64,000 nt of DNA, from contig JANQFH010000008.1 in NCBI GenBank assembly GCA_028277945.1, forward strand, positions 195,442-259,441, written 5' to 3'. How positions within the stretch are numbered: the stretch's first letter is position 1; each line of letters opens with the position of its first letter. A program made the translations under genes and the position numbers. The notes beneath the pieces were generated by a model. That model was not told where the DNA came from and did no database searches. It saw nothing but the letters and a program-made list of their open reading frames with translations. Shown in pieces: positions 6,676-57,538 of this stretch. The DNA is from Oligoflexia bacterium (GTDB lineage Bacteria; Bdellovibrionota_G; JANQFH01).

Positions 6676-6688
6676 GGCCTACAGTGAG

Positions 6689-25611: not shown

Positions 25612-25616
25612 TTGTG

Positions 25617-28017: not shown

Positions 28018-28145
28018 GCAAGAGTTAGGCCAATGGGAATATCCAATATTTCAATACGTTGTAAATATATGATACTCGGAGACAGTGTGTCTGATATAAG
28101 ACATTCTGTTCACTATGAAGACAGTTTGTTTGTATTTCGAACAAT
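28018..28145. repeat. conserved ~128-bp operon-leader element, copy 2
   Basis: Paralogous to 15906..16033; contains GTCTGATATAAGAC imperfect palindrome and ACAGTTTGTTTG; lies about 95 bp upstream of the candidate precursor ORF at 27922. Confidence 0.6.
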
Positions 28146-34453: not shown

Positions 34454-35638
34454 ATGAATAAAGAAAAGACGATTAAGAGCTCTCTTTTCAATGGATTTTC
34501 TCTCCAGGCCTTTATCTCCTCCACTCCAAGCATTGTGACGGTTGCGATTATTCCATTTATCGTTAAACACCTCGGTTTAGCATATATATGGATCGGAGTT
34601 ATTTTTTTTCTATTACGAGTGGGTCTAATAAGCGGTCGGTTTATCGGTCCGTTCTTTCTAAAATGGCTAAAACCACATTACCTCTGTGCTATTTTTGAGC
34701 TAAAGAATTTTTTCTTGATTACCATTATCTGGTTTTATTTCGACAGGATACCTTCTTCCCTCTTTGCTATTCTTTGGCTGCTAAAAGGAATCATCATTGG
34801 AGCCATATCAACCCTGGTATTTTCTTGGCTGCGTCATCTATCCGACGTCAGTAAGACCAAGCGAACGTTAATTACGGTTATGGCTATTATACAGTCTAGC
34901 TATGGTGTAGCAGGAGTTATCATTCTTACTACAACTCCTGATATAAATCTTATCAAGAATATCTTGTTAATTGATGCGCTGTCATCCTGTGTAGGACTAG
35001 TTACATTTTTGAATCTTAGGCGTTTTCGGGCTAAGGACACAGGTCGTGGAAACGCATTCTCCATATTTAAATTTCCATTTCTCAATAGAGAACGCGTCAT
35101 TCTTCTTATTGTGGATATTTTGGTAGCGGCAGGTCTTGGCGGTGCAAATATTCTACTAGTGAAGTATGGTGAAATGTACTTTTCTACCATAGGCGGATAT
35201 GGCACGACGCTTGTCGTATATGCGATAGCTTTTCTAATCGTTGGCTTTCTATTTAATATAGAACAGTCAGATACAGATCTCATTATTCGTAGACTGACGA
35301 TGCTTTGCGTGCCTCTAATGTGGGCAGGGTTGGTTGTTTTGGCTATCGCATCAGATAAGTCTTTGTTAGGTATTGCTGGATTTTCACTAGTCTATTTAAA
35401 CTTACCTATTTTCTTTTTAAGAATACAGGCGAAATGGTTCACGTTAAGTACCCCTGAAGAAGCGGCTAAGATATTCGCTTACAGAAGTTTACTTGTAGAT
35501 GTTGTTAGTGCTGTCGGTGAAGTGGTCTACGGTAGTATTAAAGAAGATATTCTGATAAGAATTACTCTCTTAACTCTTGCTATTATTCTTGGAATTGCTT
35601 TCCGAAATATGATCTTTCCTCACACACAACAATCATGA
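34454..35638 (+). CDS. polytopic membrane transporter (MFS-like)
   Basis: 394-aa ORF with about 12 hydrophobic segments; convergent with the histidine kinase at 35658..37493. Confidence 0.5.
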   Translation: MNKEKTIKSSLFNGFSLQAFISSTPSIVTVAIIPFIVKHLGLAYIWIGVIFFLLRVGLISGRFIGPFFLKWLKPHYLCAIFELKNFFLITIIWFYFDRIPSSLFAILWLLKGIIIGAISTLVFSWLRHLSDVSKTKRTLITVMAIIQSSYGVAGVIILTTTPDINLIKNILLIDALSSCVGLVTFLNLRRFRAKDTGRGNAFSIFKFPFLNRERVILLIVDILVAAGLGGANILLVKYGEMYFSTIGGYGTTLVVYAIAFLIVGFLFNIEQSDTDLIIRRLTMLCVPLMWAGLVVLAIASDKSLLGIAGFSLVYLNLPIFFLRIQAKWFTLSTPEEAAKIFAYRSLLVDVVSAVGEVVYGSIKEDILIRITLLTLAIILGIAFRNMIFPHTQQS

Positions 35639-35657
35639 AGAATGAGCTTTGTATAGC

Positions 35658-39021: not shown

Positions 39022-39038
39022 CAAAATGTGAATGAGTT

Positions 39039-40130
39039 TCACTGCGTACTCCGGTCACAGTAGATCTCAATATCATTCTGTTTTATCAGTATATGTTTTT
39101 GTGTATACGTTACTTCTACGCCTTTATGGTGTGCTTTGTAATCATATCTATAATGACCATCGAAATATCGGCATATTTGTAACGGCCCTGATTTTTTTAG
39201 TAGGTCTGTCACCCCCAATTGTAGAGGATTTTTATTTCCCGAACGTGATGACGAGGCCATCTCCTGAAACGGATGCAATTTTGAATCAATTCGCTTAGGT
39301 ACATTAGGATGAGCGTAATAAAATATTTCTCTGTCACCGCACTTCCTAAAGTAATAGGGAATGTCACCTCGTTCTAATTGTTCTAGCTCACTAGGTAGAA
39401 ATTCGTTCCCGTTTAAATTATTCGCCTTCTTTGTCAAGAAGGAATGATAATCTCTTGTAGACCGAGGAATGACCCGAATCGGATTTTGCATGAATCCATC
39501 AATGGAAGCAAAAAGATTCGCTGTGAGTTCTGTTACTGATGAGAGAAAGTTCAATGCGTCAAAAAAACCAAAGCAAATTGCAGCAACGCCACTGTGGGAT
39601 CTATCCAACTCTCGAAAGTTATTTAATAGGTGGGAGAGTCCTGAATCTTCAAATGTCAATGCAGGGGAAGGTATGAGTGCTGTTTCAGAGAGAAGTGTGT
39701 GATCTTCAAAGATACATTCTATATCGATAGGGCTGAATATGATACTGCCAGCAGAAGTCTTGCCAAGCAATACATTGGCACGGTGCAGATCTCCAATTCC
39801 GAACCAAGTAATAAGTGCGATGGTACGGCCAATATCTTCTAATACTTCTAAATCTAGATCTTTGGAAATGAGAGGTTTAAGTAGGAGTTCCTCTACTCTG
39901 CCAAAACATTTTTCACCAGGAGATGACATTTCGACATATAGTTTTGGTAAAGATCTTCCTGGGTATACAAATCCCCTTTTCTTAGCTTCAGATTCTAATA
40001 AAGATGTTAAGGGACTTAATCGAGATAAGAAGAGGTATTCCCAAAATACAGTTCTAGGCTTGCAAATCCTTTGGGTACCATCACGACAAACTCGCTGTCC
40101 AAAATTGTGAGGGTCGCCTAACGGTTGCAT
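39039..40130 (-). CDS. hypothetical protein, possible kinase-like phosphotransferase fold
   Basis: 363-aa ORF with GGGAGG before the ATG; segment GIGDLHRANVLL resembles catalytic loops of aminoglycoside/protein-kinase-like phosphotransferases; occupies the modifying-enzyme slot of the cassette. Confidence 0.35.
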   Translation of the reverse strand: MQPLGDPHNFGQRVCRDGTQRICKPRTVFWEYLFLSRLSPLTSLLESEAKKRGFVYPGRSLPKLYVEMSSPGEKCFGRVEELLLKPLISKDLDLEVLEDIGRTIALITWFGIGDLHRANVLLGKTSAGSIIFSPIDIECIFEDHTLLSETALIPSPALTFEDSGLSHLLNNFRELDRSHSGVAAICFGFFDALNFLSSVTELTANLFASIDGFMQNPIRVIPRSTRDYHSFLTKKANNLNGNEFLPSELEQLERGDIPYYFRKCGDREIFYYAHPNVPKRIDSKLHPFQEMASSSRSGNKNPLQLGVTDLLKKSGPLQICRYFDGHYRYDYKAHHKGVEVTYTQKHILIKQNDIEIYCDRSTQ

Positions 40131-40144
40131 ATGCCTCCCATCAG

Positions 40145-40258
40145 TCTATGCGGGTAGAGAAAGGGGAGGCTTACCTAGATCCCTACAGTCACGCCACGTA
40201 TTACGACAATCTTCTCCAATTTATCTAAATCTATGTATTCTCGTCTTCTTTTTTTCAT
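40145..40258 (-). CDS. candidate precursor peptide (37 aa): MKKRRREYIDLDKLEKIVVNTWRDCRDLGKPPLSLPA
   Basis: Below the ORF-track cutoff; ATG preceded by AGGAG at 6-nt spacing; stop lies 14 bp upstream of the 39039..40130 gene. Confidence 0.35.
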
Positions 40259-40895
40259 GATTTACTCCTATTTAGGTTATATCCACCAATTTTTCAAGCT
40301 CTTATTTGATATCCTTAAAGCTTAGGATGCACCCTATCCTAATTTATTTCTGCAAGGAACGTGCTAACAAAAAAGTTAATGATTTTAAAAGATTGGGTTC
40401 TTCAGGAAAGAGTATTGTTGGTTTTTGCAACAATCTAGTGCATAAAACGACAAATTGTATCTCTTACGACCAAGGTTAATAAAAGTTAATAGTGATTGAA
40501 GGGGAGGATTAGTTGTGGAGTGTTAACCCTTGGATGATATTAGACGAATTTTGAAAATCGGTCTTAATCTATTGATAAAAAAGAAACTTTTTGGGAAATT
40601 GGGGTTGATTGCCGACTGACCCAACAAAATACTACAGAAGTCTTAATGTGACAGACGTAACACATGATTCATTTCAGATGCTTATGTTGTAGTGCAGAGT
40701 GTATAGAATTTTCTCAACAAGAAGGCATATATCCTGGGAAAGGCTGCTGGTTATGGGATGTGGCCTTGCCTACTGGTATGGCGACTTACAACACTTACTC
40801 TTTTGTTAATTTCCGTAGGACTAAGAGTGGTTGCGAGGCTGGTGTACAGCATTCTCCCTATTTCAGTGGAGGGCTTGTTTTCAGAGTTTAAACAC

Positions 40896-41000
40896 CTAGT
40901 TCGCTATGAGGCTTTCCATAAACTGGTAGCCTTCGGCAATTGCAGCATCGGTAATTTGGTCCTTCAAACTGTCAACACTTCTCCGTCCCCAAGCACATGA
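40896..41000 (-). pseudogene. 3'-terminal remnant of a paralog of the lipase-like gene 44960..46414
   Basis: Minus-strand translation ...SVDSLKDQITDAAIAEGYQFMESLIAN-stop matches the C-terminus ...GLKDQITDAAITEGRQFMESLIVN-stop of 44960..46414, with a nucleotide match of about 70 bp; no upstream body. Confidence 0.5.
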
Positions 41001-41116
41001 AGTGTGTTGAACTTGAAATAGGTCTGCTACCTAAGCGAATGCTTTCCTACATTCCTATTGAAGTAGTTGGGCATAAATTACGTTAGTGGTTTTAACAAAT
41101 ACTAGTTAAGGTCTTG

Positions 41117-42331
41117 ATGTTTAGATTCTATTTCAACTCTTTTCGAGGTTTACCCAGGGCGGGAGTGTTGCTTTCATTGGCTGCATTGATAAACCGTCTT
41201 GGAAGTGTGGTGTTGTTTTTCTTTGCGATCTATTTAACGAAAAATAATTGGAGCGTATTTGATATTGGGAAGGTTCTATCAGCCTATAGTTTTGGCTATG
41301 CAGGTGGGGCTTATCTTGGTGGTCGTCTTAGTGATCGTTATGATAGCCGTTTTATACTTATAATTACACTAATGGGTTCTGGCTTATGTTTCTTCGGACT
41401 TTCTATAGCGGATTCTTTTACACCTGTTATTCTTTTACTTTCTATGGCTGGCATTTTGGAAGGTGCCTTTAAACCAGCATACAATGTTACAATGACCCGA
41501 TGTTGTACCCAGGACGAGTGGTCACGTGCTTATGCACTGTATATGACCACGACTTATTTAGGAGGAGCTATAGCTTCAATGGCAGGTGGATTTTTGTCCA
41601 AATGGAACTTTAGCTACATTTTTTATTTTGATGGTGTAACGTGTATCATTGCAGCGGTTTTTGTGTGTATTGTTTTCGATCGGCTAACCCGTTCAGTGGA
41701 AGCAGAGAAAGAGCAAATCACCGATGAGTTCAGTCTATCTAAAAATACACCTCCATCTTCTCTAGTTATTTGGATAATTTTTGTATCCATGTTTTTTGTC
41801 TATCTTGTTGATCAACAGGAGTCTGGAAGCTATATGATTCATATTACAAAACAGTATGGTATTGATACTCACCAGGTAGGTATGTTGATTGCTTTTGGCT
41901 GTGTACTTATGGCACTGACCACTGTACCTTTGACTCAGTTTTTCAAACGCATTCCGGATTTTATCGCGATGACTTTAGGATCTTTGATTCTTTGCCTGTC
42001 CTTTGGTCTTTTGAATCAGGGTGATAGTTTTGCCTTTCTTTTCTTGTTGATGGCTATGTGGTCCTTGGGCAGCATCATATCATTTCCGACCGTAGTGAGC
42101 CTCATTGGTAAGTACTCAACAAAGGAAAGGGTTGGACATAACATGGGAATTTACCATTTCATCTCTGGCTTAAGCAGAATCGTCGCGCCCTCTCTTGGTA
42201 CCTATGTCTATCAAAACTTGGGTCCGAATATCTTGTGGAGTGCTTGCACTGCTATTGGTGTTTTCAGTGGTGTATCCTTCCTTCTCATTTATCGTTTTAG
42301 TTTAAGGTCAATTCACTCCAGAGAAGCATGA
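41117..42331 (+). CDS. MFS-type transporter
   Basis: About 404-aa polytopic membrane protein, motif-A-like loop GGRLSDRYDSR; ATG at 41117 (track start is TTG at 41114). Confidence 0.7.
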   Translation: MFRFYFNSFRGLPRAGVLLSLAALINRLGSVVLFFFAIYLTKNNWSVFDIGKVLSAYSFGYAGGAYLGGRLSDRYDSRFILIITLMGSGLCFFGLSIADSFTPVILLLSMAGILEGAFKPAYNVTMTRCCTQDEWSRAYALYMTTTYLGGAIASMAGGFLSKWNFSYIFYFDGVTCIIAAVFVCIVFDRLTRSVEAEKEQITDEFSLSKNTPPSSLVIWIIFVSMFFVYLVDQQESGSYMIHITKQYGIDTHQVGMLIAFGCVLMALTTVPLTQFFKRIPDFIAMTLGSLILCLSFGLLNQGDSFAFLFLLMAMWSLGSIISFPTVVSLIGKYSTKERVGHNMGIYHFISGLSRIVAPSLGTYVYQNLGPNILWSACTAIGVFSGVSFLLIYRFSLRSIHSREA

Positions 42332-43131
42332 AACTGATCGAAAGAGATGTAGCTTTAATCAACCATGAATATTACATCGATGGAATTGCTGGCAGTCAGT
42401 ATACATCGAGACAGGTGTTTACGTGCCGAGGTAAACTATTTGTTGTGATTGATGAATTGTGTGTCGATAAGTTACATGATATAGCGGTTAACTACGTTGG
42501 CCAATATAGTACTAAGAGTATAGTGTGTCTTTGCTCACATTTACGTGTTAGACAAATTAGTGAAATGTGGGAAAAGACAAGTTCAAAATTCTATTCGTGG
42601 TTTGGTTTTACGTTTGATCCGGCATTGTCCCGGTTCGACTTTGCTTACTCGAAAAGTGCACTAGAGGGATTCGACGTATCGGTCGGTATGCCAATTAGTA
42701 AGGTTGAAAAGGAAACACTGTTAAAATTGTGGCAAAAACACTATATTGAAAAGGTTCTCCTAGGTTATCCGGAGAAAATAAGGCATCGTTATCTTGAAGA
42801 ATTTCAACAAAGATTGGGTTCTGATAATGAAAATCGGCATACCATAGTTCGGCAGGATAGTGAGATTGTGGCCCATCAGATGCTACGAAGACTTTTTACG
42901 GAGCAAAGAAACTGTTGGGATAAAGAGTTGCACTTTTGGGTCGATGGACAGCTGAATAAGTCGATTCGACGAGAAATTCATCGACGGTTTTGGTATGAAG
43001 TACATGAGGCATCGAGAAAACATATGGTGCTTGGTGGTGTTGCGAGTAATAATATATCGAGTATCAAACATCTCATTAAAAATGGTGGCCGATTACTTTT
43101 TATTCAATACATAGGGTTATCGTCTTACTAG
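42328..43131 (+). CDS. hypothetical protein (cassette enzyme slot)
   Basis: 267-aa ORF whose start overlaps the MFS stop by 4 nt; no recognised motif. Confidence 0.4.
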   Translation: MKLIERDVALINHEYYIDGIAGSQYTSRQVFTCRGKLFVVIDELCVDKLHDIAVNYVGQYSTKSIVCLCSHLRVRQISEMWEKTSSKFYSWFGFTFDPALSRFDFAYSKSALEGFDVSVGMPISKVEKETLLKLWQKHYIEKVLLGYPEKIRHRYLEEFQQRLGSDNENRHTIVRQDSEIVAHQMLRRLFTEQRNCWDKELHFWVDGQLNKSIRREIHRRFWYEVHEASRKHMVLGGVASNNISSIKHLIKNGGRLLFIQYIGLSSY

Positions 43132-43253
43132 TGGTCTGACATATCTTGGTTGTCACCCTACAAACTACACATAGATTGTGTCAAAATTGAACAGTTTGTT
43201 TGAAATGGAGACAGTAACAAACCAAGTAAAAACTAACTGATTTTATGCCTGTG

Positions 43254-43343
43254 TAACCTTGACGGATTTAAGCGATCAGGGTAAGCATTTATAATTAGAC
43301 GAGATTATAAATGAGCTTAGAAAGGGAAGCGCAATGCGGAGTT
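43254..43343. repeat. duplicated promoter/5'-leader element, copy 1 (pairs with 47260..47352)
   Basis: AACCTTGACGGATTTAA ... ATTATAAAT.AGCTT.GAAAGG.AA..GCAATGCGGAGTT shared with 47260..47352, including a TTGACG -35-like box, a purine-rich RBS and the ATG CGG AGT start. Confidence 0.6.
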
Positions 43344-44740
43344 CAAAAATTGGTATGACAAACGTTCCAAGTGACCTTGATCCATTGAAGGCACGATATG
43401 CTTACGACCTGATGATGAACGCATGCGTTTTTTCGCGACTTGTACAGCTTGATGGTAATGGTCAGGTGGTGTCAGAGCTTGCGTCCAGTTGGAAGGTTAG
43501 TGATGCAGGAGATGAGTATACCTTTACCTTGAATTCGGACGCGAGATTTCATGATGGGTCACCAGTAACAGCTCGAGATGTTGTCTATACCTTCGAAAGG
43601 ATCTTGAAGTCAGATCGGCCACCTGCTTCGATTCTTCGTCTAGCATTAGATCCTTCCTTTCGTTCGGATGAGGATTGTCCGGTAAAGGCAGTGAACGATC
43701 GTCAGGTCAAATTTCATTTACCTGGTGCGTACCCGCCATTTCTGTCTCTGCTTTGTAATCCTGTTTTTGGAATAGTTGCTCAGGATAGTGATGGTAAGAT
43801 TGGCTCTGGTCCAATGGTGCTGGAGGCTGACGAGCATAGTAAGACATTGAAGTTTAAACCCTTCCAGGAAGGCGCCGGTCTCGGCGAGTTTTATGTAAAG
43901 CAGATCTCCCGTGACAGCTTACCGGAAGTTATTGCCGAAGATGAACTAGATCTGATTTTTGGGCTCAATTCAATAGATTTTCAGAACGTAATCCGCATAG
44001 ACCCATACAAGGTCGTCAGAGGCCATGATTCGTTTGTCGCTCACTTTTTATGCAATACCAAAAGTCCAGTACTAGATTCTTTAGAGAGGCGACGTAATCT
44101 AAGCTATTTGATCAATTCGCTTTCAGATGAAGTGAGCAATTTAGCAGAATATCAAAAACCGCTGAAAAGTTTTCTACCAAGTGGGTTGTTGTCGCCATCT
44201 TATTACCAGAGAGCAACATCGCCTGTATCCGAGGATGCCTTTAGTGCAAAAAACAGCCAATTCAAAGCCCAACCGCTGCGTATCGTGGTTCAGAAAGGTA
44301 TTTTTTCTCAGAGTTATATGAGTGCGCTAGGTTCTCTAATAGAAAGGCTAGGTATGGTACCTGATATTCAACTAGTGGATTCAGACGCATTATGGAACCG
44401 CTATGCAAAGGATGATTATGATCTTATATCTTTTAGTTACAGTTTGGCGATTCCCGACGATCCAGATGGCTACCTATGGCCCTTCGACAATAAGGAGCTC
44501 GGCATTGATAATCGGTTTCCTATGAGCTCTTTTCTTCAGAAGATTGAAAAGGTCCGTTTTACGTCGAACCAGAAAGAGAGACTCGAGCTCTATGAACGTG
44601 AGTTCAAGCAGTTTGAACAGGAACATTACTTTATTCCAGTGCTTCAACATGACCATCTTATTGCTTTTAAAAACCGGAGCGAAATACCGACTTTAAAGCC
44701 TACATTCCTTTATCGATTGTCTGATTTTATCAGACCTTAG
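43334..44740 (+). CDS. family-5 solute-binding protein lacking a signal peptide (N-terminally truncated paralog)
   Basis: 468-aa ORF aligning to the other SBP5 paralogs from about residue 40 onward (SKIGMTNVPSDLDPLK vs LKIGVSILPQTLDPMK); begins MRSSKIG with no hydrophobic leader. Confidence 0.65.
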   Translation: MRSSKIGMTNVPSDLDPLKARYAYDLMMNACVFSRLVQLDGNGQVVSELASSWKVSDAGDEYTFTLNSDARFHDGSPVTARDVVYTFERILKSDRPPASILRLALDPSFRSDEDCPVKAVNDRQVKFHLPGAYPPFLSLLCNPVFGIVAQDSDGKIGSGPMVLEADEHSKTLKFKPFQEGAGLGEFYVKQISRDSLPEVIAEDELDLIFGLNSIDFQNVIRIDPYKVVRGHDSFVAHFLCNTKSPVLDSLERRRNLSYLINSLSDEVSNLAEYQKPLKSFLPSGLLSPSYYQRATSPVSEDAFSAKNSQFKAQPLRIVVQKGIFSQSYMSALGSLIERLGMVPDIQLVDSDALWNRYAKDDYDLISFSYSLAIPDDPDGYLWPFDNKELGIDNRFPMSSFLQKIEKVRFTSNQKERLELYEREFKQFEQEHYFIPVLQHDHLIAFKNRSEIPTLKPTFLYRLSDFIRP

Positions 44741-44959
44741 CCTAGATCCGGACACAGACATATTTTTTAACGAATTTATTATGGTTCATTTCGTGTAATA
44801 GTGTGTTCGATCCGAGTGTGTACCCTAGGCTTTTTCAAGAATGAGTTTGGTTTTGAGCCGAAAGGGCTCTAGCAGTATATCCAGGGTACCCCGTTTCAGG
44901 CGGCGACGTCCTTTAAGAAAGGCGGAGATGTTTGCTGGCGTTGCATGGGCAAGTAAAGC

Positions 44960-46414
44960 CTAATTCACTATTAGGCTCTCCATAAACTGGCGGCCTTCGG
45001 TAATTGCCGCATCGGTAATTTGATCCTTTAAACCTGTGGCATTCTTTGCCCAACACTCAGGGCTTTTTGAGAATAGGAATCGCTGCTGGTTGGCCTTGAA
45101 CCCATATTGGTGTCCGCCACCTCTGCCGCGCTGGGCGTGACCGTTGTAAGAGGTACAATAAGACATCTCTGCCCATTCTAAATCCTCTCGTCTCGCTTTC
45201 AAAACCAATGCCGGACAATCATCAAACCATTTCAACACGGCATCTGCCTGTTCACTACATTTAAGCAAAAGACCAGAGATAACATCCATAAAAGCCATTC
45301 CTGCCATACACTGACCTACACTCAACTTTTGCGGCCTATGAATATGCCGATGCATCCAATGCCAAACAGGCATTAAAGAAGAGTGTAATCCATTTACCAG
45401 TTCATGCATATAGGCTCGTTCGTATTGTACTACCGGATCTTCAGAATTGATTGATCCGATCAAAAATTCTTCTTTAATCTTTATCTTCATCTCTCCATTG
45501 TTTTCAAAAACCCATTTTTCAAACATCTCGTCTATAGCCGAACGGATCATCAGCATTACAAAATCCCATGCTGAACCACTAAGATAATGCCTTACAAAAT
45601 CGTGCCCCGTACCTGTCGCCTCCTCATCACTCCAGTTTGGCGGTAGTTTTTTTGGCACTGCTCTGATAATTCGATCTTGCTTCAGCGTAATATGCAATGG
45701 CTTGATATAAGGGGTGTCTCCAGGACCTTTTGCTCTAGATAAATCACCCAACTTAGTTCGCTCAAACCGAGTATCAGACACCTTACTTGCTGGCGTTGCC
45801 ACTGAAATCAGCATCATGATACCTTTAAAGCCTCCGTTATCACCCTCGAACATCACCTTTTCATAAGCCTCATTTGAAAAGAAATTCCCTTGTGAGTGAC
45901 TGACTGTTAATGTATTGTAACCTTCCTCCAGTGATTTTCGATAAGCCGCTACTTGTTCAGCAATGTCAGCTCTTCTTTGTCTGTTCACAAATTCGTCAAA
46001 TAACCCCCTAATCGACTTAGAGATGTTCACCAAAAAATCCGGCGCTAGGTGCTGCTGGGAGAACAGACGAAACATGCTCCCTGAATCTAAGACAACGTTT
46101 TTTCTACGCAGATCGTCCCGCTTTTGATCCATTGCCTCGGCAATCTGCAGCAAAACTGTTTGATCGGTGTTGAACGCGATGTTCGGCTCAGCGTCTCGTA
46201 CTAGCCCTTCCACACCTCTCAAAACACGCATTTTCTCCCAAAGCTGAGTCCAAGATTTTTGTGCCTCCTCAAAAGAGGTAAACATTCCATTTGCGAAATA
46301 TAATCTCGATTTCCTCCAACACTCACCTGCACCATAACCTACCTCAGCCACAGTCAGCAGAACGACAAGGATCCCTAGAGCAATGTTCAAATTTCTACTT
46401 GTGTTCAAATTCAC
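44960..46414 (-). CDS. secreted hypothetical protein, possible alpha/beta-hydrolase (lipase-like)
   Basis: 484-aa ORF with signal peptide; SxSxG-type nucleophile-elbow candidate (TVSHSQGNFF); its C-terminus is duplicated as a remnant at 40896..41000. Confidence 0.35.
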   Translation of the reverse strand: MNLNTSRNLNIALGILVVLLTVAEVGYGAGECWRKSRLYFANGMFTSFEEAQKSWTQLWEKMRVLRGVEGLVRDAEPNIAFNTDQTVLLQIAEAMDQKRDDLRRKNVVLDSGSMFRLFSQQHLAPDFLVNISKSIRGLFDEFVNRQRRADIAEQVAAYRKSLEEGYNTLTVSHSQGNFFSNEAYEKVMFEGDNGGFKGIMMLISVATPASKVSDTRFERTKLGDLSRAKGPGDTPYIKPLHITLKQDRIIRAVPKKLPPNWSDEEATGTGHDFVRHYLSGSAWDFVMLMIRSAIDEMFEKWVFENNGEMKIKIKEEFLIGSINSEDPVVQYERAYMHELVNGLHSSLMPVWHWMHRHIHRPQKLSVGQCMAGMAFMDVISGLLLKCSEQADAVLKWFDDCPALVLKARREDLEWAEMSYCTSYNGHAQRGRGGGHQYGFKANQQRFLFSKSPECWAKNATGLKDQITDAAITEGRQFMESLIVN

Positions 46415-46898
46415 AAGGATCTACCTTTGGATCATGCCCGCCAAGCATCTTCCCTGAAAGCTTACCGTTGAACTCTATATAACGCCTCGCTCTTGCTCGT
46501 GTGTTCACTACGAGATCTTCGATTACCTCACCAGCCTCCCCAGCATAAGCCTCCAAATCTACCTTGGCAAAACAAAGCGATGCTCTCGTAATCTGTCCTG
46601 CCACTACCTCAGCGTCTAAGTCGTTTTTAAGGGCATTCTGTAGGGCCTTTGCCTGTTGTCGCATCGCCATCTGTACCATTCTATCTCCGGCATACTCCCT
46701 CTCAATGAGGGCTTCCACGTCATCTCGCACGCCGTCTTGGTTTTTATCTACCCCCTCAATTGTCTCGTCTTCTGCTTTCTTACTACAGGGCCCACATCCA
46801 GCTCCCACCAGGCTTCCTAAGGTAAGACTAAGCAGCAGGACAAAAGAGGCACCGGTCATACGGATTGTCTTCAGAATCAACAACCATAAATTCATCAT
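46395..46898 (-). CDS. probable lipoprotein of unknown function
   Basis: 167-aa ORF; signal peptide with lipobox-like LVGAGC; 3' end overlaps the start of 44960..46414 by 20 nt. Confidence 0.4.
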   Translation of the reverse strand: MMNLWLLILKTIRMTGASFVLLLSLTLGSLVGAGCGPCSKKAEDETIEGVDKNQDGVRDDVEALIEREYAGDRMVQMAMRQQAKALQNALKNDLDAEVVAGQITRASLCFAKVDLEAYAGEAGEVIEDLVVNTRARARRYIEFNGKLSGKMLGGHDPKVDPCEFEHK

Positions 46899-47259
46899 CT
46901 CTATTCTCCTTCTTTAGTTACTACGATTGCGGAAAGTTGTTCTGTTTCCTTAATAACGCAAGAATCGTGCCTATACAGGGTCATATAGGCAATCTCATGA
47001 TTCGGGTTTCTGATGTATCTGATAAAACAAAGATGGATGAAGGAAAATGAAACAACCTGACGTTAATCCAAGCAATATGTATGAAAAGAAAACAACAGCG
47101 TGTATGTCATGCTTGGAGTCTTTTCACTCGGTATAAGTAAAAGAGCCTCGACAGAAACGACGTGGATATGTTTGTGCTGAGTCAATTGTTATTTGCGCAT
47201 CTCCGGATCTGATGAAACAGCGACAAACTGAAAGAAGAACTGACCAACTTTACCATTTA

Positions 47260-47352
47260 TAACCTTGACGGATTTAATCAGTCAAGGTAGTCAATGAACT
47301 AGGATTAGTAGGATTATAAATAAGCTTGGAAAGGAAATTGCAATGCGGAGTT
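47260..47352. repeat. duplicated promoter/5'-leader element, copy 2
   Basis: Matches 43254..43343; here the shared ATG CGG AGT start opens only a 16-codon upstream ORF (MRSLMLQFIGRKYVSR, stop 47391..47393) overlapping the start of the gene at 47380. Confidence 0.6.
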
Positions 47353-47379
47353 TAATGTTGCAGTTTATAGGAAGAAAGT

Positions 47380-47748
47380 ATGTCAGCCGTTAAAATTACA
47401 GCAAATTTATTTTCGCTGTACTTTGTAATAGTGCCTTTCAGCAATGCAGCAAACTGGTCACTCGTAGAGAAGATTGACCCAAGCACAACGGCTCAGACCA
47501 AACGTGAATTAACCGACAGCGAGTATTCGTATATTTCTGGTAAATTCAAATGCACTGTTTTAGCACCAGAGAAAGACTCAAATAAAAAACGTGGGTGGTT
47601 TAGAACTATTAAGTGTAAAAATGGCGATCTAGTATTTGAAGATACTGCTTCTTGTGGCGGTATACATGGAGAATTCGGTATTGTCGGGGTTAAAGTTACC
47701 TATAAAGGTGAAACTTTTCAGCCATTGCTAGTTTGTCAGGCAAAATAG
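47380..47748 (+). CDS. small secreted hypothetical protein
   Basis: 122-aa ORF with signal peptide and four Cys. Confidence 0.45.
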   Translation: MSAVKITANLFSLYFVIVPFSNAANWSLVEKIDPSTTAQTKRELTDSEYSYISGKFKCTVLAPEKDSNKKRGWFRTIKCKNGDLVFEDTASCGGIHGEFGIVGVKVTYKGETFQPLLVCQAK

Positions 47749-47975
47749 TTTCATCGCCTAAAATGGCCTAGTCAAGAAAAGCGTTTACAGGTTGTGAAAA
47801 GAGAAGGCCCTCTTATTTCAATGAGGCCGAATTTATCCGCGATATAAATTAGTTGTACAATGGAAACGCATAAGGAACCAGGGCATTCTAGATTTCTCCG
47901 CCCGTCTAAAACCGTGTATATCTGGTATGTAACATCAATAATGCATGATATTGGTCGAAGAAAAGGTTAACATGC

Positions 47976-49151
47976 GTGGATAGGTTAATGAGCGGAAGCT
48001 TGGTCCGTGTCTATGTTGTCCGATTTTGTGCTTCAAGCATTGAAGGGATCGTAGCCGTAATCACGATTACAGCCTTCATCAGAGCGACGGGATCAGTTAG
48101 TGCGGCAAACCTTCTCAATTCCATATTTTGGCTGACGTTATTTTTTGCAGAGCTGCCAACTGGCTATCTAACAGATAAGTGGGGTGGTAAAAGAGCGCTA
48201 GGTATTAGCTTAACTCTACGGGCTATTGGGTTTTTAATTTTCTACCTTGCTGGAGGCTCTTGGATTCTGCTTATAGTAGGCTGTATATTAACAGGCGTCG
48301 CTGTAACTTTCCTAAGTGGAACCTTTGAGCTACAAGTAAAGCAAATTCAAAAAGAGGCACAGACACAAGAGCTAGCCGGAGATTCCTCAAAGACCGTCAT
48401 TTCTTATCTACATTTTTCTCACTATCTGGGCCTATGTACCGGGTCACTTCTCGTAACACTTTGGCTGCTTAAAATGGAGATACAGACAGCATGGCTATTG
48501 TCGGCTTGTCTATCATTTATTGCGCTCGGTATCTTATCCTTTACCTGGGATTCTCTTAAGCCTGCTTATGATAAGGGTCCTTTTATTCATTTCAAAGAAG
48601 CTGTCTCGAAAGTTATTAATGAGCAGAAAGTTCGGAGCCTATTTGTATATCAATTTATCTTTGTACTTTTTTCGATATCGTTTCTAACGAACTGGGTAGT
48701 GATTTTTGTCCCAAGACTAGACAATACGCCGATTCAGCTCGGCGTATTAACGGTGGTTTTTTCTATGCTGATTAGTTTTTTTGTATGGACGTGGAAGTAC
48801 CTAGAGATACTTAAAAGATTAACTATACCTTATGTTTTCATTGGATTTTCTATATCGCAAGTGCTCGCATGCAGCGATGTTATGGTGTTTAGATTTCTTG
48901 GCGGATTAGGTGCCTTATTTTTCTTTGCTGGCTGCCAGATAGGCATCCGGCATGCAATATTTTCATCTATTTCGTCCTCGAAAGCGGGAGCTATCTTGTC
49001 GCTATTTAGTTTGCAGGAAAATTTTTCTGGTTGGGTTGGTTTACTTTCATTGGCATTCTTTCTGAAGCTCTATTCAGTTGAGGTATCCTGGATAGCCTCA
49101 GGAGCCTGCATGGTTGCTGCAGTTGGCTTTTATTCATTCCATCGACGTTGA
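47976..49151 (+). CDS. MFS-type transporter
   Basis: 391-aa polytopic membrane protein; motif-A-like loop GYLTDKWGGKRAL; GTG start at 47976 or ATG at 47988. Confidence 0.55.
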   Translation: MDRLMSGSLVRVYVVRFCASSIEGIVAVITITAFIRATGSVSAANLLNSIFWLTLFFAELPTGYLTDKWGGKRALGISLTLRAIGFLIFYLAGGSWILLIVGCILTGVAVTFLSGTFELQVKQIQKEAQTQELAGDSSKTVISYLHFSHYLGLCTGSLLVTLWLLKMEIQTAWLLSACLSFIALGILSFTWDSLKPAYDKGPFIHFKEAVSKVINEQKVRSLFVYQFIFVLFSISFLTNWVVIFVPRLDNTPIQLGVLTVVFSMLISFFVWTWKYLEILKRLTIPYVFIGFSISQVLACSDVMVFRFLGGLGALFFFAGCQIGIRHAIFSSISSSKAGAILSLFSLQENFSGWVGLLSLAFFLKLYSVEVSWIASGACMVAAVGFYSFHRR

Positions 49152-49213
49152 AAGGACCGGTTAATAGCTACGGTCATATTGCACTTTCAGCTTCTATGAT
49201 CTATTAAGTCGAA

Positions 49214-50011
49214 ATGGCAAGAAAGTCGGTCTACACAAAGGAGTGGTGGAACGCCGCATTTCAAGGAGGTGTCTATCCTCTTACGCAACTGGCGGCCTTA
49301 AAGGATCAAGTGGGGTTAACGCGAAGAGAGGTTCAGGGTATTAAAAAACTGTTGAATCTTCCAAAAGGGTCAAAGATCTTGGATTTAGGATGCGGAGTCG
49401 GACGACACTCGCTAGGTCTTGCAAGACATTCATATGATGTAACCGGAGTTGACATCTCGAATACGTTCCTTAGATATGCACGAGCGAGAGCTAGAAAAAT
49501 GAAACTGCAAGTCAATTTTATACGAAAAGATATGCGACTCCTATCTTTCAAGGGTCAATTTGATGCAGCTATAAATATTTTTACCAGCTTCGGATACTTT
49601 CCGCAAAAGTCTGATGATCTCCGCGTTGCTAGAAAAGTCTGTAAATGCCTTAAGCCAGGCGGTAAATTTCTTCTAGAGATCTTCAACGGTACAAAAATTC
49701 AAAAACTCCTGGTTAATGCCAATAGCAATAGAGAACCCGTCCGCCGCTGGTATGAATTTGCAGATAGGAGTCTGCTGTTAGAGCATCCAAGCTACTCCAA
49801 GCGTCTCGGGGGGACAGTCACGAGGTGGATTTATATCACTAAGGGAAAACGAAAAGAAGTGACTTCGTTCACCAGAGCGTATTCTAAGAGCAGTTTAGTC
49901 CATTTGCTGAAAAATGCAGGATTCAGACAGGTGACAGTTTATGGAGACCTGGAATGTTCACGTTACTATCCGCATAAATCTAACCGCCTAGTAGCAGTAG
50001 CAACGAAGTAG
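49214..50011 (+). CDS. class I SAM-dependent methyltransferase
   Basis: 265-aa ORF with motif I ILDLGCGVGRHS and downstream acidic-loop and motif-II-like segments. Confidence 0.75.
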   Translation: MARKSVYTKEWWNAAFQGGVYPLTQLAALKDQVGLTRREVQGIKKLLNLPKGSKILDLGCGVGRHSLGLARHSYDVTGVDISNTFLRYARARARKMKLQVNFIRKDMRLLSFKGQFDAAINIFTSFGYFPQKSDDLRVARKVCKCLKPGGKFLLEIFNGTKIQKLLVNANSNREPVRRWYEFADRSLLLEHPSYSKRLGGTVTRWIYITKGKRKEVTSFTRAYSKSSLVHLLKNAGFRQVTVYGDLECSRYYPHKSNRLVAVATK

Positions 50012-50306
50012 AGGATGACGGGGGAAAACTAGCAGTCGATCGACAATTTGGAAACCCTATTCCGGATTTTGAGGATATACTAAATGGAAGATTTTGAGAC
50101 ATTGACTCCGCAAATAAATCCTATGGGCGCTATTCGTCCTGTATCCTACGACCAACGGTTGAGGAGGCTGTACGCCGCTATCCTGAGAGTGTCACAATGC
50201 AAAAACTCGTTCAGGCGTTAAAAGCTGCTACTCCGTTCCCCACGCCAGTTCCTAAAAATTAAATCGCTATTCACTGCTTCGGTTGGTGGCAACGCATTAG
50301 GGAAAA

Positions 50307-50426
50307 AATTCCCGATCGGTAATAAATAGGCCTCAAATCTGTCTTATTTGATATAAAATTCCCGATCAGGAATAATTTTCTTGATTTCAGTCTAGGTGTA
50401 GATTAATATTCCCGTACGGGAATATG
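50307..50426. promoter_or_regulatory. three spaced palindromic operator-like sites upstream of hipBA
   Basis: AATTCCCGATCGGTAAT (about 50307..50323), ATTCCCGATCAGGAAT (about 50358..50373) and the perfect 16-bp palindrome ATTCCCGTACGGGAAT (50407..50422) at about 50-bp spacing; the third ends 1 bp before the hipB ATG at 50424. Confidence 0.55.
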
Positions 50427-50654
50427 AAACAGGCAGCAGCACAGATTGGTCATTTAGTGAAAAAGACCCGTAAAAGTCTAGGTGTCACCCAGAAGGAGTT
50501 GGCGCTGACCTCGGGTACAGGTCTGCGCTTCATCATTGAGCTGGAGAAGGGCAAACCGACCTGTCAACTAGCCAAGGTGCTGACGGTTCTACATACGCTG
50601 GGCATCAAGCTTGAGCTAACGGCGCCAGCCACTGCAAGAGATGACGGCAAATGA
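50424..50654 (+). CDS. hipB: HipB-like XRE-family HTH antitoxin
   Basis: 76-aa ORF with HTH segment LGVTQKELALTSGTGLRFIIELEKGK; overlaps the hipA start by 4 nt. Confidence 0.7.
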   Translation: MKQAAAQIGHLVKKTRKSLGVTQKELALTSGTGLRFIIELEKGKPTCQLAKVLTVLHTLGIKLELTAPATARDDGK

Positions 50655-51907
50655 GCAAGACTCTTGATGTTTATTTGTACCGCCACCTGGTTGGCTGCCT
50701 CATACAGGATGAGCATGGTCTGATGGTATTTGATTATGCAGAGAACTGGCTAGAGAATCCCAACGCAATTCCTCTATCGTGTTCGCTACCGCTAAGAAAA
50801 GAGCGCTTCTCGTTTAAGGAATGCCGAGGATTTTTTACCGGCGTCCTACCAGAAGAAAGTAAACGAGAGGTGATTGCGCGCATTTTTGGAATTAGTGCAC
50901 GCAATGACTTTGCCATGCTTGAGCAAATTGGCGGTGAGTGCGCTGGAGCAGTTACTTTCATTCCCACTGGTCAATTGTTGCCGGAGCGTGACGAGCACTA
51001 CCGTGAGGTTTCCAACCAAGAGTTGGCGGAAGTTCTTCGAACACTACCAACTCGGCCCCTTTTGGCGGGAGAAGAGGGCGTCCGTCTATCGCTAGCAGGT
51101 GCACAGGACAAAATTGCTGTTCGTATGGATGGCGATAGAATCTCCATTCCGCTTGGAGACTCTCCCAGCACACACATCCTGAAGCCCGACATCGAGCGTT
51201 TCCAAGGGGTGGTTTTCAACGAGGCGCTCTGTATGCAATTGGCGGCCTCTATCGGCCTACCAACGGCGAATGTACAAACCCGCAGCGTTGAAGGCATCGA
51301 TTATCTTTTGATTGAACGCTATGACCGAGTGGTTCATATGACGTCCGATGGTCAGGCAAAGCTTCAACGTCTGCATCAGGAGGATTTTTGTCAGGCACTC
51401 GGTATTCCATCCGAGATGAAGTACCAGAGCGAGGGAGGGCCATCTCTCAAACAGTGCTTTAGCTTACTGCGAGAAGTTTCCAGCGCACCGGTGATCGACC
51501 TACAGCATCTTCTAGATGCCGTTATTTTTAATCTGCTGATTGGCAATCACGATGCGCATGCAAAGAACTTTTCATTTTTGTATGGAGATGGGACATCAGT
51601 AGAGCGGGGGACAAGACTTGCACCTCTGTATGATCTGATCAGCACCGTCTATTACCCAGAACTATCCAAGAAGATGGCCATGAAAATTGGTGGTGAGTAT
51701 GCTGCAGACAAAATCTTCCCAAGACATTTTGAGAGACTTGCCGAAGAGGCTGCCTTAGCCAAGCCGATGGTCAAGAAACGTATACCGGAGGTAGCTGAAT
51801 CCCTGATACACAGTCTAAGCAGCTTAACTACTGAAGAGTCGGTAGCAAAGGGTGTCACTCAAACTATACAAAAGCAGGCTGAATTGGTTCTGGAACGATT
51901 CAGATAA
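50651..51907 (+). CDS. hipA: HipA-family serine/threonine kinase toxin
   Basis: 418-aa ORF; HipA N-terminal region and catalytic motif FNLLIGNHDAHAKNFSF, plus LAGAQDKIAV. Confidence 0.85.
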   Translation: MSKTLDVYLYRHLVGCLIQDEHGLMVFDYAENWLENPNAIPLSCSLPLRKERFSFKECRGFFTGVLPEESKREVIARIFGISARNDFAMLEQIGGECAGAVTFIPTGQLLPERDEHYREVSNQELAEVLRTLPTRPLLAGEEGVRLSLAGAQDKIAVRMDGDRISIPLGDSPSTHILKPDIERFQGVVFNEALCMQLAASIGLPTANVQTRSVEGIDYLLIERYDRVVHMTSDGQAKLQRLHQEDFCQALGIPSEMKYQSEGGPSLKQCFSLLREVSSAPVIDLQHLLDAVIFNLLIGNHDAHAKNFSFLYGDGTSVERGTRLAPLYDLISTVYYPELSKKMAMKIGGEYAADKIFPRHFERLAEEAALAKPMVKKRIPEVAESLIHSLSSLTTEESVAKGVTQTIQKQAELVLERFR

Positions 51908-51913: not shown

Positions 51914-52180
51914 TTATTTCCCCCATCCGATATATTTCTTGTAACCTTTTTCTAAATTTATAATTTCAAAGACATCACCATCAAATGTTGAGCACTGCAA
52001 TTTTTTTCCATTACATCCAAGATTGGCGTAGTTAATTTCTGGCTGGTGTCTGGATGGCGGTGCTAGGGTCCACATTTCTTTACCGTTTAGATCGAACGCT
52101 CGGATGTTTTGTGGGTCTCTGGATTCAAAGAGAAAGACGATGAGTTTATCAGCTAGGTAGGCTGTTTGATACATTCCCAC
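51914..52180 (-). CDS. immunity-like small protein, N-terminally shortened paralog of 52293..52658
   Basis: 88-aa ORF sharing RDPQNIRAFDLNG ... DVFEIINLEKGYKK with 52293..52658; in-frame stop about 8 codons upstream of its start. Confidence 0.4.
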   Translation of the reverse strand: MGMYQTAYLADKLIVFLFESRDPQNIRAFDLNGKEMWTLAPPSRHQPEINYANLGCNGKKLQCSTFDGDVFEIINLEKGYKKYIGWGK

Positions 52181-52292: not shown

Positions 52293-52658
52293 TTACTTAC
52301 CCCATCTTTTTTTAAAACCTTTTTCTAGGTTTATGATCTCGAATACATCGCACTCCACTGTAGCGCATAGCAGACTGTTTTCATATTCCCATAGATTGAC
52401 GTAGTAGACCTCCGGTCTATATCTAGATGCCTTTGTTAGTGCCCATAATTCATTGCCATGGAGATCAAAAGCACGGATATTCTGTGGGTCTTTGGATCTA
52501 AAAAGTACAATAATGATGTTATCGATCAGATATCCTACTGTAATCTTCCCATATGTTTTAGGAAGGAGTATGGATTTGTGATTGTCTACTTTTATTTCTA
52601 TTCTATTGTCTCTTTCTAGAAGTTTTTGTAATTTCACCATATTATTGGTTCGCTCCAT
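52293..52658 (-). CDS. immunity-like small protein (downstream of large secreted toxin-like gene)
   Basis: 121-aa ORF overlapping the 3' end of 52634..54766; no signal peptide. Confidence 0.4.
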   Translation of the reverse strand: MERTNNMVKLQKLLERDNRIEIKVDNHKSILLPKTYGKITVGYLIDNIIIVLFRSKDPQNIRAFDLHGNELWALTKASRYRPEVYYVNLWEYENSLLCATVECDVFEIINLEKGFKKRWGK

Positions 52659-54767: not shown

Positions 54768-55964
54768 TTAATCTTCTTCTAGTTTGTTGAGAGCTAGTTC
54801 CGCGAACGCGGCATATGTGCCATGGCTGTCTTCGTTAGCGATTTCTGCGTAGAGTAGAAGTGCCTTTGCCTGTTCAAGCTCTGCTGGCAGGACTCTGCCG
54901 CTCTTTTCTAGCTTGCGGATACGCTTTTGGATCCAATAGGAAGGTGGATTCTTTGTGACCAGGCGTCGGTATTTTTTGACCTTTGCTGTCCATTCAACGG
55001 CCAGCTCTTTTGCCTTTTTCGCCTCTTTTTCGCGCAAATCAAGCGACAGTAGGGCATTAAGGAGGATGAGAGAACCTGTTTGCAGGACTTCTAACCTTCG
55101 TAGGGCCTCAAAGTAACGGTAGTGCAGGAGTAAAGCATCTTGAAACTGTTGCTCCAGCTCCACCAATACATTCTCGGCATCGTAGTAGGCGTCAAGACTG
55201 ACTTCTGCATGAGCCAGCCTCTCCTGAAAATCCTTGTACATACCATGGGCTAAAACTTCGGAGGTGTGGTCGAGGTATTTCTCCAAAGTTTCGCCATACT
55301 GCTCGAAAATGCGCCCATAAGCTTGCTCGACTTGTGGCAATGGTTGCCTGAGCTTTTCGCAGTAATCCACCAGAGGGGAGAAACCATGTGATTTGAGCCA
55401 AGAGATTGCACCTGCAAGGGATGGCTTGTAGCCGTATTGCAGATCTTGTGAATATTCGGGAGGAATGGCATCTACAAGTCGGTCGGCGTTGGTTTCGAGG
55501 ACGATGCGACACTGTGCTTCCATGGACGATAACGACCTACGGTATCGTTCCAAGGCCGTGGTGGCTTTATGTTCTTCCTCGGCAAACCCAAAAGCCGCCG
55601 TATGGAGCTTTTGTGTCCACTGCTTTGCCTCTTCAGCCCCTAGACTCTCAACCTCCGGAGGTTGTATTACTTGGACATTCTCAGCAGCTACAGCAATGGT
55701 CCTGAATGCAGACTTCATCACCTCACGATGTTTGACCCCTTGTAGATATGCCCCATTCAAGAAATCGTAGGCTTGCAGGCGGGCCTTTTCATGGACTATC
55801 TTGCGTTTTAGCTCATCTTTTTGCGTCTCAATTTCTCTCCTCTCACGTGCCATTTCTTCGACAGATTGTGCCTGACTAAGAGAAGGAAGTGAGACAAACA
55901 ACAAAAGTAAAAGAGGAAGATTGAACAGGTTTGTCATAACAACGTTACTTTTAATCGCCCTCAA
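54768..55964 (-). CDS. secreted coiled-coil hypothetical protein
   Basis: 398-aa ORF with signal peptide (LFVSLPSLSQAQS); 1-bp gap to the downstream toxin-like gene. Confidence 0.4.
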   Translation of the reverse strand: MRAIKSNVVMTNLFNLPLLLLLFVSLPSLSQAQSVEEMARERREIETQKDELKRKIVHEKARLQAYDFLNGAYLQGVKHREVMKSAFRTIAVAAENVQVIQPPEVESLGAEEAKQWTQKLHTAAFGFAEEEHKATTALERYRRSLSSMEAQCRIVLETNADRLVDAIPPEYSQDLQYGYKPSLAGAISWLKSHGFSPLVDYCEKLRQPLPQVEQAYGRIFEQYGETLEKYLDHTSEVLAHGMYKDFQERLAHAEVSLDAYYDAENVLVELEQQFQDALLLHYRYFEALRRLEVLQTGSLILLNALLSLDLREKEAKKAKELAVEWTAKVKKYRRLVTKNPPSYWIQKRIRKLEKSGRVLPAELEQAKALLLYAEIANEDSHGTYAAFAELALNKLEED

Positions 55965-55969
55965 TAGTG

Positions 55970-57538
55970 CTAATAGCGGCGTCCTACTTGGTCTCCATAT
56001 CTATCTAGTATAGGAGTTTGCGTCCTGTACTTTTTATCGCCTTCGATAGCCCCAATAGCGGCGTCCTCCTTGGCCTCCATACACTTTGTATAGAGCAGAT
56101 CGCGTCCTGTATCTTTTAAGGCGCGAATAAACTTTTGCAGGTGTTTGGTTTCATCTTGCACTTCAAAACTCTTGGAAATCAGCATGGCATGCAGCTCTGT
56201 TAAGCGAGTGAATGCTCTGCCTATCTCGTCTTCCGGGCCGACTGTATCTGTAGGTTCCTGCATAAGGCTGTAAACGGCGATCAGGCGCTCATAGTCGCTT
56301 AGCGACAATTCTTCGTCTTCATAGAGCTCTTCTACTGTCTTCCGAAACGCTTTCGGGCGCTTCTCGATCTTAGCTAGCGTCCATTCCTGCAGATTCCCTA
56401 CTTTTTTGAGTAACAACAGCCCTTCGAGTGTTGCGGCTGTAAGTTCTAACTCTTGGAAGGTATCGTCGTACTCCTCATCGTTTATAGCGCGGAGACGATC
56501 GATGATTCTTTTTAGCGAGGATTCGGATTTCTTGAAATAGGCTTTGAATATCCTGCGTGCCTCAAAATTGACCATTAACGCTCTTTCAAGATCTTCTTTG
56601 TCTGATTTAATTAGCGTTTCGAGCCAACTCAGGCGATTTTCTGCATCACCAAGGTTTGTGCAAGCTTCGAGCACAGAGTCTTCATAAACAAGGAGATCGT
56701 AACCAACGAGGTTAAGGGAGTAACTACGAAGCATCCCAACAGGCATTTTTATCTTTATTGTTGTGTTTCCCAGCAGGTCTAACTGCTGTCTCATGCTGGA
56801 CCTTGCTGTGTAGGTCCATCGCTGTGGTCCTCTTTCTTGACACCAAAATCCGTCTTTAGGATTATGATGGTGTGCGTGACGCCCATTTAAATTGCAGTAA
56901 CACCAGCCACTGTCACCCGTGTAGGTGGGTTTTCCATAGCGCCAATGATCCTCGGGAAAGACGATTTCAACACGGTGCATACGGTATAGAGAGTTTAACT
57001 TGCTTAAAGGGGTGTCACCGAGAAATGCATTGGTCGTCTGTTCGGTGCGAAATTTATTCCAGTCTATGACTGCGAGTGGAAGAGGAAAGTTTTCAATATC
57101 ATACCTCTTATAAGATGCTGGAGGATCTAACGCAGACGAGAAAGGTCGATAGCTGACGGTTGTTTGGGGAAATGGATATTTGTATTTAAACAGTGTTTCG
57201 TCATTTTGTTTATAATAGAGCTTAAAATAGACGTTGCTTCCTAAGAGCTGCTGCTCCAGCTCTCTATGTACTTCGGAATCATCAATTCCTTCGCCTTTCG
57301 CACCCATCTTGCCAAATAGCCGAACTTTGTAGGTGGCGGGATAGAGATATGATTCTCTTTCGTCAATATCCTCAAAATCTGAAAGGAATAATCCCAAGGA
57401 AGGAAGGCCTTGCTTCATCGCATAGCTGTTAACGTAGTAAATTTCACTCTTAGCCCAGGAGATTGGTGGAAAAATAATTAGGACCATGGTTAGAAGCAGA
57501 AAATATAGCCAGGGGATATGTGTTACTCGGTTTGACAT
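55970..57538 (-). CDS. membrane-anchored hypothetical protein
   Basis: 522-aa ORF; N-terminal TM/signal segment; His-rich patch HAHHHNPKDGFWC; first gene of a same-strand string ending at 51914. Confidence 0.4.
   Translation of the reverse strand: MSNRVTHIPWLYFLLLTMVLIIFPPISWAKSEIYYVNSYAMKQGLPSLGLFLSDFEDIDERESYLYPATYKVRLFGKMGAKGEGIDDSEVHRELEQQLLGSNVYFKLYYKQNDETLFKYKYPFPQTTVSYRPFSSALDPPASYKRYDIENFPLPLAVIDWNKFRTEQTTNAFLGDTPLSKLNSLYRMHRVEIVFPEDHWRYGKPTYTGDSGWCYCNLNGRHAHHHNPKDGFWCQERGPQRWTYTARSSMRQQLDLLGNTTIKIKMPVGMLRSYSLNLVGYDLLVYEDSVLEACTNLGDAENRLSWLETLIKSDKEDLERALMVNFEARRIFKAYFKKSESSLKRIIDRLRAINDEEYDDTFQELELTAATLEGLLLLKKVGNLQEWTLAKIEKRPKAFRKTVEELYEDEELSLSDYERLIAVYSLMQEPTDTVGPEDEIGRAFTRLTELHAMLISKSFEVQDETKHLQKFIRALKDTGRDLLYTKCMEAKEDAAIGAIEGDKKYRTQTPILDRYGDQVGRRY

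Follow-up and report, generated by a model that had tools for sequence, protein, structure and literature searches.

The locus analysed here raises a simple question: how did the same upstream sequence, closed by the same start codon, come to stand before two unrelated genes, and what does it do in front of them? The sequence lies twice on the plus strand of a 64,000-nucleotide stretch (hereafter, the window) from the genome of an uncultured, Bdellovibrio-like Oligoflexia bacterium. At 43208..43346 (copy A), non-coding upstream DNA followed by ATG CGG AGT TCA A is joined to a truncated SBP5 gene, and at 47214..47355 (copy B) the sequence stands in the intergenic DNA that separates the divergently oriented genes p167 (minus strand) and p122 (plus strand). 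An earlier note on this DNA had described a shared segment of about 90 bp. The segment is real and longer than claimed: blastn and alignment within the 64-kb window give 144 columns with 73.6% identity, at E=1.6e-19 with +1/-1 scoring and 3e-13 with default scoring, and a MAFFT alignment of the two copies has 99 identical columns out of 143. The pairwise alignment likewise shows that the similarity is not confined to a short low-complexity stretch, and low complexity is ruled out for the module as such. It is non-coding, measures ~140 bp and is present in exactly two copies in the window, ~4 kb apart (offset 4006-4009). Our preferred reading, to which we assign a probability of about 0.6, is that these are two diverged copies of one upstream regulatory region, arising through duplication and illegitimate recombination, with copy B promoter-like and copy A joined to the truncated SBP5 gene.

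Conservation is uneven along the module. Three blocks are perfectly conserved in both copies, TAACCTTGACGGATTTAA (18 nt), GATTATAAAT (10 nt) and GCAATGCGGAGTT (13 nt), and this clustering is beyond chance when match and mismatch columns are shuffled (the two longest runs give P=0.003, the summed length of the three longest P=0.005). The 18-nt block, at 43254..43271 in copy A and 47260..47277 in copy B, comprises the left arm and the spacer of a palindrome. In copy B this is a perfect 7-bp inverted repeat, CCTTGAC-N11-GTCAAGG (47263..47287, plus strand), a candidate enhancer or operator or, at the RNA level, a hairpin; its counterpart in copy A (43257..43281, plus strand) is degraded by 2 mismatches and would form, as RNA, 6 bp including one U-G pair. 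The 10-nt block contains the heptamer TATAAAT, on the plus strand at 43306..43312 in copy A and 47315..47321 in copy B, and the 13-nt block surrounds the shared ATG. The similarity of the two copies ceases 12-13 nt past that ATG. We also considered the module as a coding relic and rejected this, as stop codons abound in all six frames and the differences upstream of the ATG, read in frame, are non-synonymous.

In copy A the module runs directly into a gene. This gene, SBP5t (43334..44740, plus strand), belongs to SBP_bac_5 by Pfam and by alignment to its paralogs, and its first four codons come from the module. Module homology extends to 43346 and DNA homology of the SBP5t body to a paralog begins at 43345, placing the breakpoint at 43345..43346 on the plus strand with 2-4 nt of possible microhomology. 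The closest relative of SBP5t is an in-window paralog, P0003 (25611-24097), with 42% identity; outside this genome, the best protein matches come from MAGs of Bdellovibrio and Pseudobdellovibrio and are only 30% identical. Residues 3-5 of SBP5t align with residues 34-36 of P0003, and the tripeptide MRS stands in SBP5t in place of 33 N-terminal codons. What these codons encode in the relatives is a signal peptide: all three full-length SBP5 paralogs in the window, P0003 and two others, begin with a hydrophobic one. A Bdellovibrio homolog, P0004 (contig L042, 5900-6001), is annotated as starting with MNSY, but this start is mis-called, the frame running upstream to an ATG and a signal peptide that overlap the preceding DUF4135-like gene. 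Between an in-frame stop at 43292-43294 and the ATG at 43334 there is no alternative start codon for SBP5t, and its signal peptide is therefore truly lost. SBP5t also has no histidine kinase downstream, whereas an overlapping kinase gene follows each of the three intact SBP5 genes. As judged from the sequence, SBP5t is a fragment of such a cassette, the 5' end of which has been replaced by the module.

The switch of homology at 43345/43346 is abrupt and in frame, and both parents can be named, copy B for the module and P0003 for the body. In this the locus resembles the chimeric genes and promoter captures known from bacteria, in which a sharp breakpoint with a few nucleotides of microhomology places a foreign upstream region and start codon in frame on a 5'-truncated gene, and in which both parent sequences can still be recognised in the same genome. 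It differs from them in that the event is old (26-31% divergence) and that the surroundings have since been overwritten.

A junction of this kind could be produced by misassembly, especially as there are repeats in the region and the Logan assembly breaks 158-185 nt past the junction, the Logan contig that carries p122 (L001) beginning at 43504. However, an independent Logan contig, L043, equals window positions 32328-43530 at 100% identity and thereby covers p267 and module A as well as the junction, reaching 197 nt into SBP5t. A 33-nt exact repeat (43501-43533 = 16076-16108) is present where the Logan assembly breaks and accounts for the break, across which SBP5t is collinear with its paralog. 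The junction between copy A and SBP5t is real, and we consider the probability of an assembly chimera to be negligible. The earlier note's view of a recombination product thus holds: the same upstream region with its ATG precedes two unrelated genes, and the breakpoint at 43345/43346 is read through by L043.

The direction proposed in that note, with the start of the SBP5 gene now driving a short open reading frame (ORF) in front of p122, should probably be reversed. MRS replaces 33 codons that the SBP5 paralogs and the corrected Bdellovibrio homolog devote to a signal peptide. Because MRS is foreign to the SBP5 family, and because both homologies end at one and the same copy A breakpoint, a B-like region (or a lost third copy) would have donated the module to the SBP5 gene. 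This polarity follows from parsimony on a comparison of two copies only, and is the most economical one. We accordingly picture the history as follows. An upstream region of ~140 bp would have been duplicated and recombined illegitimately within an island of paralogous SBP5-histidine-kinase cassettes. Copy B, the more intact one, would front the orphan secreted-protein gene p122 with the anatomy of an activator-dependent promoter. In copy A, a sharp breakpoint would have brought the region onto an SBP_bac_5 gene without its first 33 codons, and hence without the signal peptide that they encode, whereby an ATG lying inside the core promoter of copy B would have become the first in-frame start of SBP5t. 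The positions most critical to the palindrome and to a sigma-54 promoter would have decayed in this copy.

The 468-codon frame of SBP5t is still open. With random substitutions at 10-13%, a frame of this length survived in 0.1-0.3% of simulations; with substitutions at 5% it did so in 5.6%. According to this model, either the fusion is much younger than the divergence of the two modules, or the gene is under selection. It is therefore possible that SBP5t is expressed and functional from the start codon supplied by the module. As for its transcription, a scan found no intrinsic terminator between p267 and SBP5t, which makes read-through plausible, and read-through from the upstream MFS and p267 genes appears more likely as the source of SBP5t transcripts.

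What kind of element, then, is the module? The earlier note had read it as a sigma-70 promoter with a TTGACG -35 box, a ribosome binding site and a start codon. Part of this stands: an SD-like stretch, AAAGG(G/A)AA, is found ~8 nt before the shared ATG in both copies, as is the ATG itself. The promoter part does not. TTGACG, present in both copies, agrees with the -35 consensus TTGACA at 5 of 6 positions, but no -10 lies at 16-18 nt from it, the hexamers 17 nt downstream (copy A, TAAGCA; copy B, TAGTCA) both matching the -10 consensus at 2 of 6 positions. The conserved TATAAAT, 22 nt before the ATG, might act like a -10 or bend the DNA and lacks a partner at -35, and a scan with the sigma-70 consensus returned no site in either module. 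The FliA (sigma-28) motif TTAAG-N16-CCGATA, reported for Bdellovibrio, is absent from the module on inspection by eye.

Copy B does, on the other hand, contain a candidate for a sigma-54-type -24/-12 element. We used the extended consensus TGGCACG-N4-TTGCW. The candidate, TGGAAAGGAAATTGCA (47327..47342, plus strand), has the GG-N10-GC core with TGG and TTGCA flanks, agrees with the consensus at 10 of 12 positions and lies 38 nt upstream of the p122 ATG. Its -24 half, TGGAAA, is the weakest of the candidate set, with A at positions 4 and 6 of the consensus; the remaining candidates of the window show C or T there, except for one A at position 6. A second candidate, AGGCACGATTCTTGCG (46957..46972, minus strand), lies 59 nt upstream of p167 and diverges from module B. 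B. bacteriovorus encodes an RpoN-like sigma factor, bd0843 (PMC3464611). No gene for a sigma-54 activator (Sigma54_activat domain) was detected in the window.

Such elements are over-represented across the window. With up to 2 mismatches to the consensus there are 21 matches against 8.8±3.1 expected, a number reached by none of 100 shuffles, and the strict form TGG-N8-TTGCW occurs 11 times against 5.25 expected (0/100 shuffles reach 11). Both GG and GC are present in eleven sites with a score of 10/12 or better. Of these, five lie in intergenic DNA within 400 nt upstream of a start on the same strand, where ~0.6 would be expected from random placement (5.4%), a binomial probability of roughly 1e-4 that includes the copy B site, which was picked post hoc. 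These five lie at 12330, at 28316 (before a pilin-like gene, 28476-29189), at 46957 (p167), at 47327 (p122) and at 57554 (p522). Another consensus match is seen at 63339. Two matches stand only 16-17 nt ahead of a start codon, implying near-leaderless mRNAs. In a Bdellovibrio MAG with a related locus, the sole sigma-54 consensus match lies 51 nt upstream of the first cassette gene.

If the copy B element is used, transcription is predicted to begin at ~47352. The shared ATG at 47343 would then occupy positions -9 to -7, the module homology (to 47355) would end ~3 nt into the transcript, and neither the ATG nor the start of the short ORF that it opens would be transcribed. The palindrome, which stands about 60-75 bp upstream of the core and has its centre ~53 bp upstream of the -24 element, would be centred at about -77, a plausible enhancer position. 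With sigma-54 (RpoN) promoters copy B has in common its candidate GG-N10-GC core and flanks, a suitable distance to the gene, an upstream inverted repeat and the clustering of similar elements upstream of operons across the island. The likeness is incomplete: the TGGAAA half of copy B is atypical, and copy A has lost an invariant G. The equivalent sequence in copy A, TAGAAAGGGAAGCGCA (43318..43333, plus strand), has AG for GG and GC for TT, scores 7/12 against the consensus by eye, and is probably inactive. These changes make up 3 of the 6 differences in the 3' block, and the right arm of the palindrome is degraded as well, so copy A looks like a decayed copy. Pure decay nevertheless fits poorly, since three blocks without a single difference, the 13 nt around the ATG among them, point to constraint on both copies. 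On balance, copy B is more probably a promoter that depends on an activator, possibly of the sigma-54 type, than a unit of sigma-70 promoter, RBS and start codon.

In copy B the shared ATG opens an upstream ORF (uORF) of 16 codons (MRSLMLQFIGRKYVSR, 47343..47393, plus strand). It overlaps the ATG of p122 (47380) by 14 nt in a different frame, and its stop, TAA at 47391-47393, lies 11 nt past that ATG; these positions had been given correctly in the earlier note. The gene p122 itself (47380..47748, plus strand) is an orphan encoding 122 aa with a signal-peptide-like N-terminus, and has a Shine-Dalgarno sequence of its own, AGGAAG. A search of 5.8 billion protein clusters returned no homolog but the protein itself. 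The protein has four cysteines. Does the uORF control p122? It has initiation signals of its own, including an AAGGA before its ATG, and terminates near the downstream start, as in systems of termination-reinitiation coupling, and a stop 11 nt beyond the next ATG falls in the range for which reinitiation is known. It departs from such systems in several ways. The peptide is common to both copies for 4 codons only and unique to copy B thereafter. No structure hides the p122 Shine-Dalgarno sequence, the folds of 47300-47420 and 47320-47400 giving z=+0.34 and z=+0.98 against shuffles. A scan of the plus strand at copy B detected no terminator or attenuator hairpin, nor alternative terminator and antiterminator forms. 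In addition, the coupling becomes moot if transcription begins at ~47352, as the uORF ATG would lie upstream of that start. Translational coupling, as suggested in the earlier note, is physically possible but unsupported, and the uORF is most likely a by-product of promoter sequence rather than a coupling device. Of 25 long ORFs in the window, only about a quarter show a Shine-Dalgarno core that can be recognised no further than 25 nt from the start, and SD-independent initiation seems to be common in this organism.

Several other accounts of the module have to be weighed against our reading of two diverged copies of a regulatory region. The strongest among them, though still unlikely, is neutral debris: an old segmental duplication would have left behind two copies without function, and SBP5t would be a dead remnant. 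The window does contain several decaying fragments, SBP5t lacks both a signal peptide and the kinase partner of the three intact cassettes, and no canonical promoter was found; yet neutral debris would not be expected to show significantly clustered conserved blocks, an open frame of 468 codons or, in copy B, a well-placed -24/-12 match with a perfect palindrome. Rather less probable is the combination of sigma-70 promoter, ribosome binding site and start codon, with the uORF of copy B translated and its termination coupled to initiation at p122. The joint conservation of TTGACG, the SD-like stretch and the ATG speaks for it, as does a stop within reinitiation range, and the conserved TATAAAT could serve as a -10 that would put the uORF ATG on the mRNA. 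But each promoter half lacks its partner, p122 has an unoccluded Shine-Dalgarno sequence of its own, the uORF is shared for no more than its first codons, and only about one gene in four in the window has a Shine-Dalgarno sequence at all. Less probable again is a structured RNA leader, in which two hairpins, the second enclosing the SD sequence and the AUG, would regulate translation of the downstream gene. RNAalifold keeps two hairpins in both copies, with one U-A to U-G change and one compensatory exchange of G-C for A-U (43313/43344 versus 47322/47353), single-sequence folding of copies A and B gives z-scores of -2.98 and -1.93, respectively, and the base of hairpin 2 is exactly where the homology stops. 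However, covariation between two sequences has no power (227 of 500 shuffles were as good), hairpin 2, whose 7 bp include G-U pairs and close a 20-nt loop, is weak, an Rfam scan of 40000-51000 gave no match at E<=1, and such a leader needs a promoter upstream of the module, where none is evident in copy B.

The module might also be a MITE- or REP-like repeat, small and either mobile or dispersed, and with REP/BIME elements and MITEs it does share its short length, its non-coding nature and its internal palindrome. We regard this as very improbable. Unlike those elements it has two copies only in 64 kb, shows no terminal inverted repeats or target-site duplications by inspection, and is absent from all collections searched: the 18-mer yielded 21 single matches in 185,579 genomes and 19 in the JGI metagenomes, all at chance level and none extending past ~28 nt, and a 23-mer had 0 matches in viral contigs. 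A bolder idea concerns the island as a whole. One may speculate that units of ~135 bp, each an enhancer with a sigma-54 core, act as portable modules that are repeatedly recopied within the SBP5-kinase island, rewiring orphan genes and, in the case of SBP5t, creating and maintaining a signal-less cytoplasmic SBP5 protein with a new role. The reason for this thought is that two independent non-coding duplicates in the window, the present module and the one described below, both end at a -24/-12 element; we consider it doubtful, with a probability well below that of the preferred reading.

The event itself is an ordinary product of bacterial genome shuffling and involves no new mechanism, and its significance beyond this genome is small. 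It does provide a clean and datable case in which illegitimate recombination in a paralog-rich island supplied a truncated gene with a new 5' end. The case further illustrates that what is read by eye as promoter, ribosome binding site and ATG may be a promoter of another type with an incidental ATG. Should the idea of portable sigma-54 modules be true, it would offer a hint as to how the wiring of SBP5-kinase signalling diversifies in relatives of predatory bacteria.

The surroundings of the module are those of a mosaic island. The window contains three intact cassettes on the minus strand (3907-8248, 22314-26933 and 35658-40130), each made up of a YcaO, MFS or DUF4135-like gene followed by SBP5 (SBP_bac_5) and a histidine kinase, and the order DUF4135-SBP5-kinase recurs in a Bdellovibrio sp. 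MAG (L042, 5097-9508). The cassettes resemble a module family for sensing peptides in the periplasm, with a link to enzymes of the RiPP type.

Comparison of the window with itself revealed four to five further relic duplications, including gene fragments with sharp edges. A non-coding duplicate of 131 nt (15903-16033 and 28015-28145, minus-strand sense, 80% identity) lies upstream of two minus-strand operons; both of its copies end in the -24/-12-like sequence TGGCCTAAYTCTTGCY, an architecture that parallels the module. One of these copies is abutted by a 74-nt fragment (16035-16108, minus strand) that is 84% identical to codons 55-81 of SBP5t (43501-43574) and holds the 33-nt exact repeat mentioned above. 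A pair of small ORFs (51935-52150 and 52308-52523, minus strand) are adjacent paralogs with 68% identity over 217 nt, and a tandem duplication with a period of 82 nt (55946-56036 and 56028-56118) covers the boundary between p398 (54768-55964) and p522 (55970-57538). Finally, a relic of a p484 paralog (40895-40982, minus strand) preserves the last ~28 codons and the stop in register with its counterpart at 44959-45033.

The offset of this p484 pair, 4064, is nearly equal to that of the module pair (4006-4009), which suggests that one copying event of ~2.4 kb (44959-47355) was the source of both. A simple tandem duplication of 4 kb was considered as a full explanation and rejected, the sequence between and beyond the matching ends being unrelated. 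Yet the 2.2 kb between the p484 relic and the module in the A locus, occupied by the MFS gene and p267, is unrelated, and a relaxed tblastn of 40131-43333 found no remnants of p484 or p167 beyond the 3' fragment.

The motif ACAAACAAACTGT has 9 occurrences in the window with up to 2 mismatches, against 1.9 expected, among them 16009, 28121, 43191, 22195, 27939 and 62945. Its sites include both copies of the 131-nt duplicate and, in inverted orientation, a position just upstream of module A. Genes of toxin type are scattered through the window, encoding a Fic-domain protein (9717-10907), a RES-domain protein (19139-20923) and HipBA (50424-51907), consistent with a variable genomic island. Just upstream of hipB-hipA, at 50296-50375, two 30-nt direct repeats with 80% identity stand 50 nt apart and may be HipB operators.
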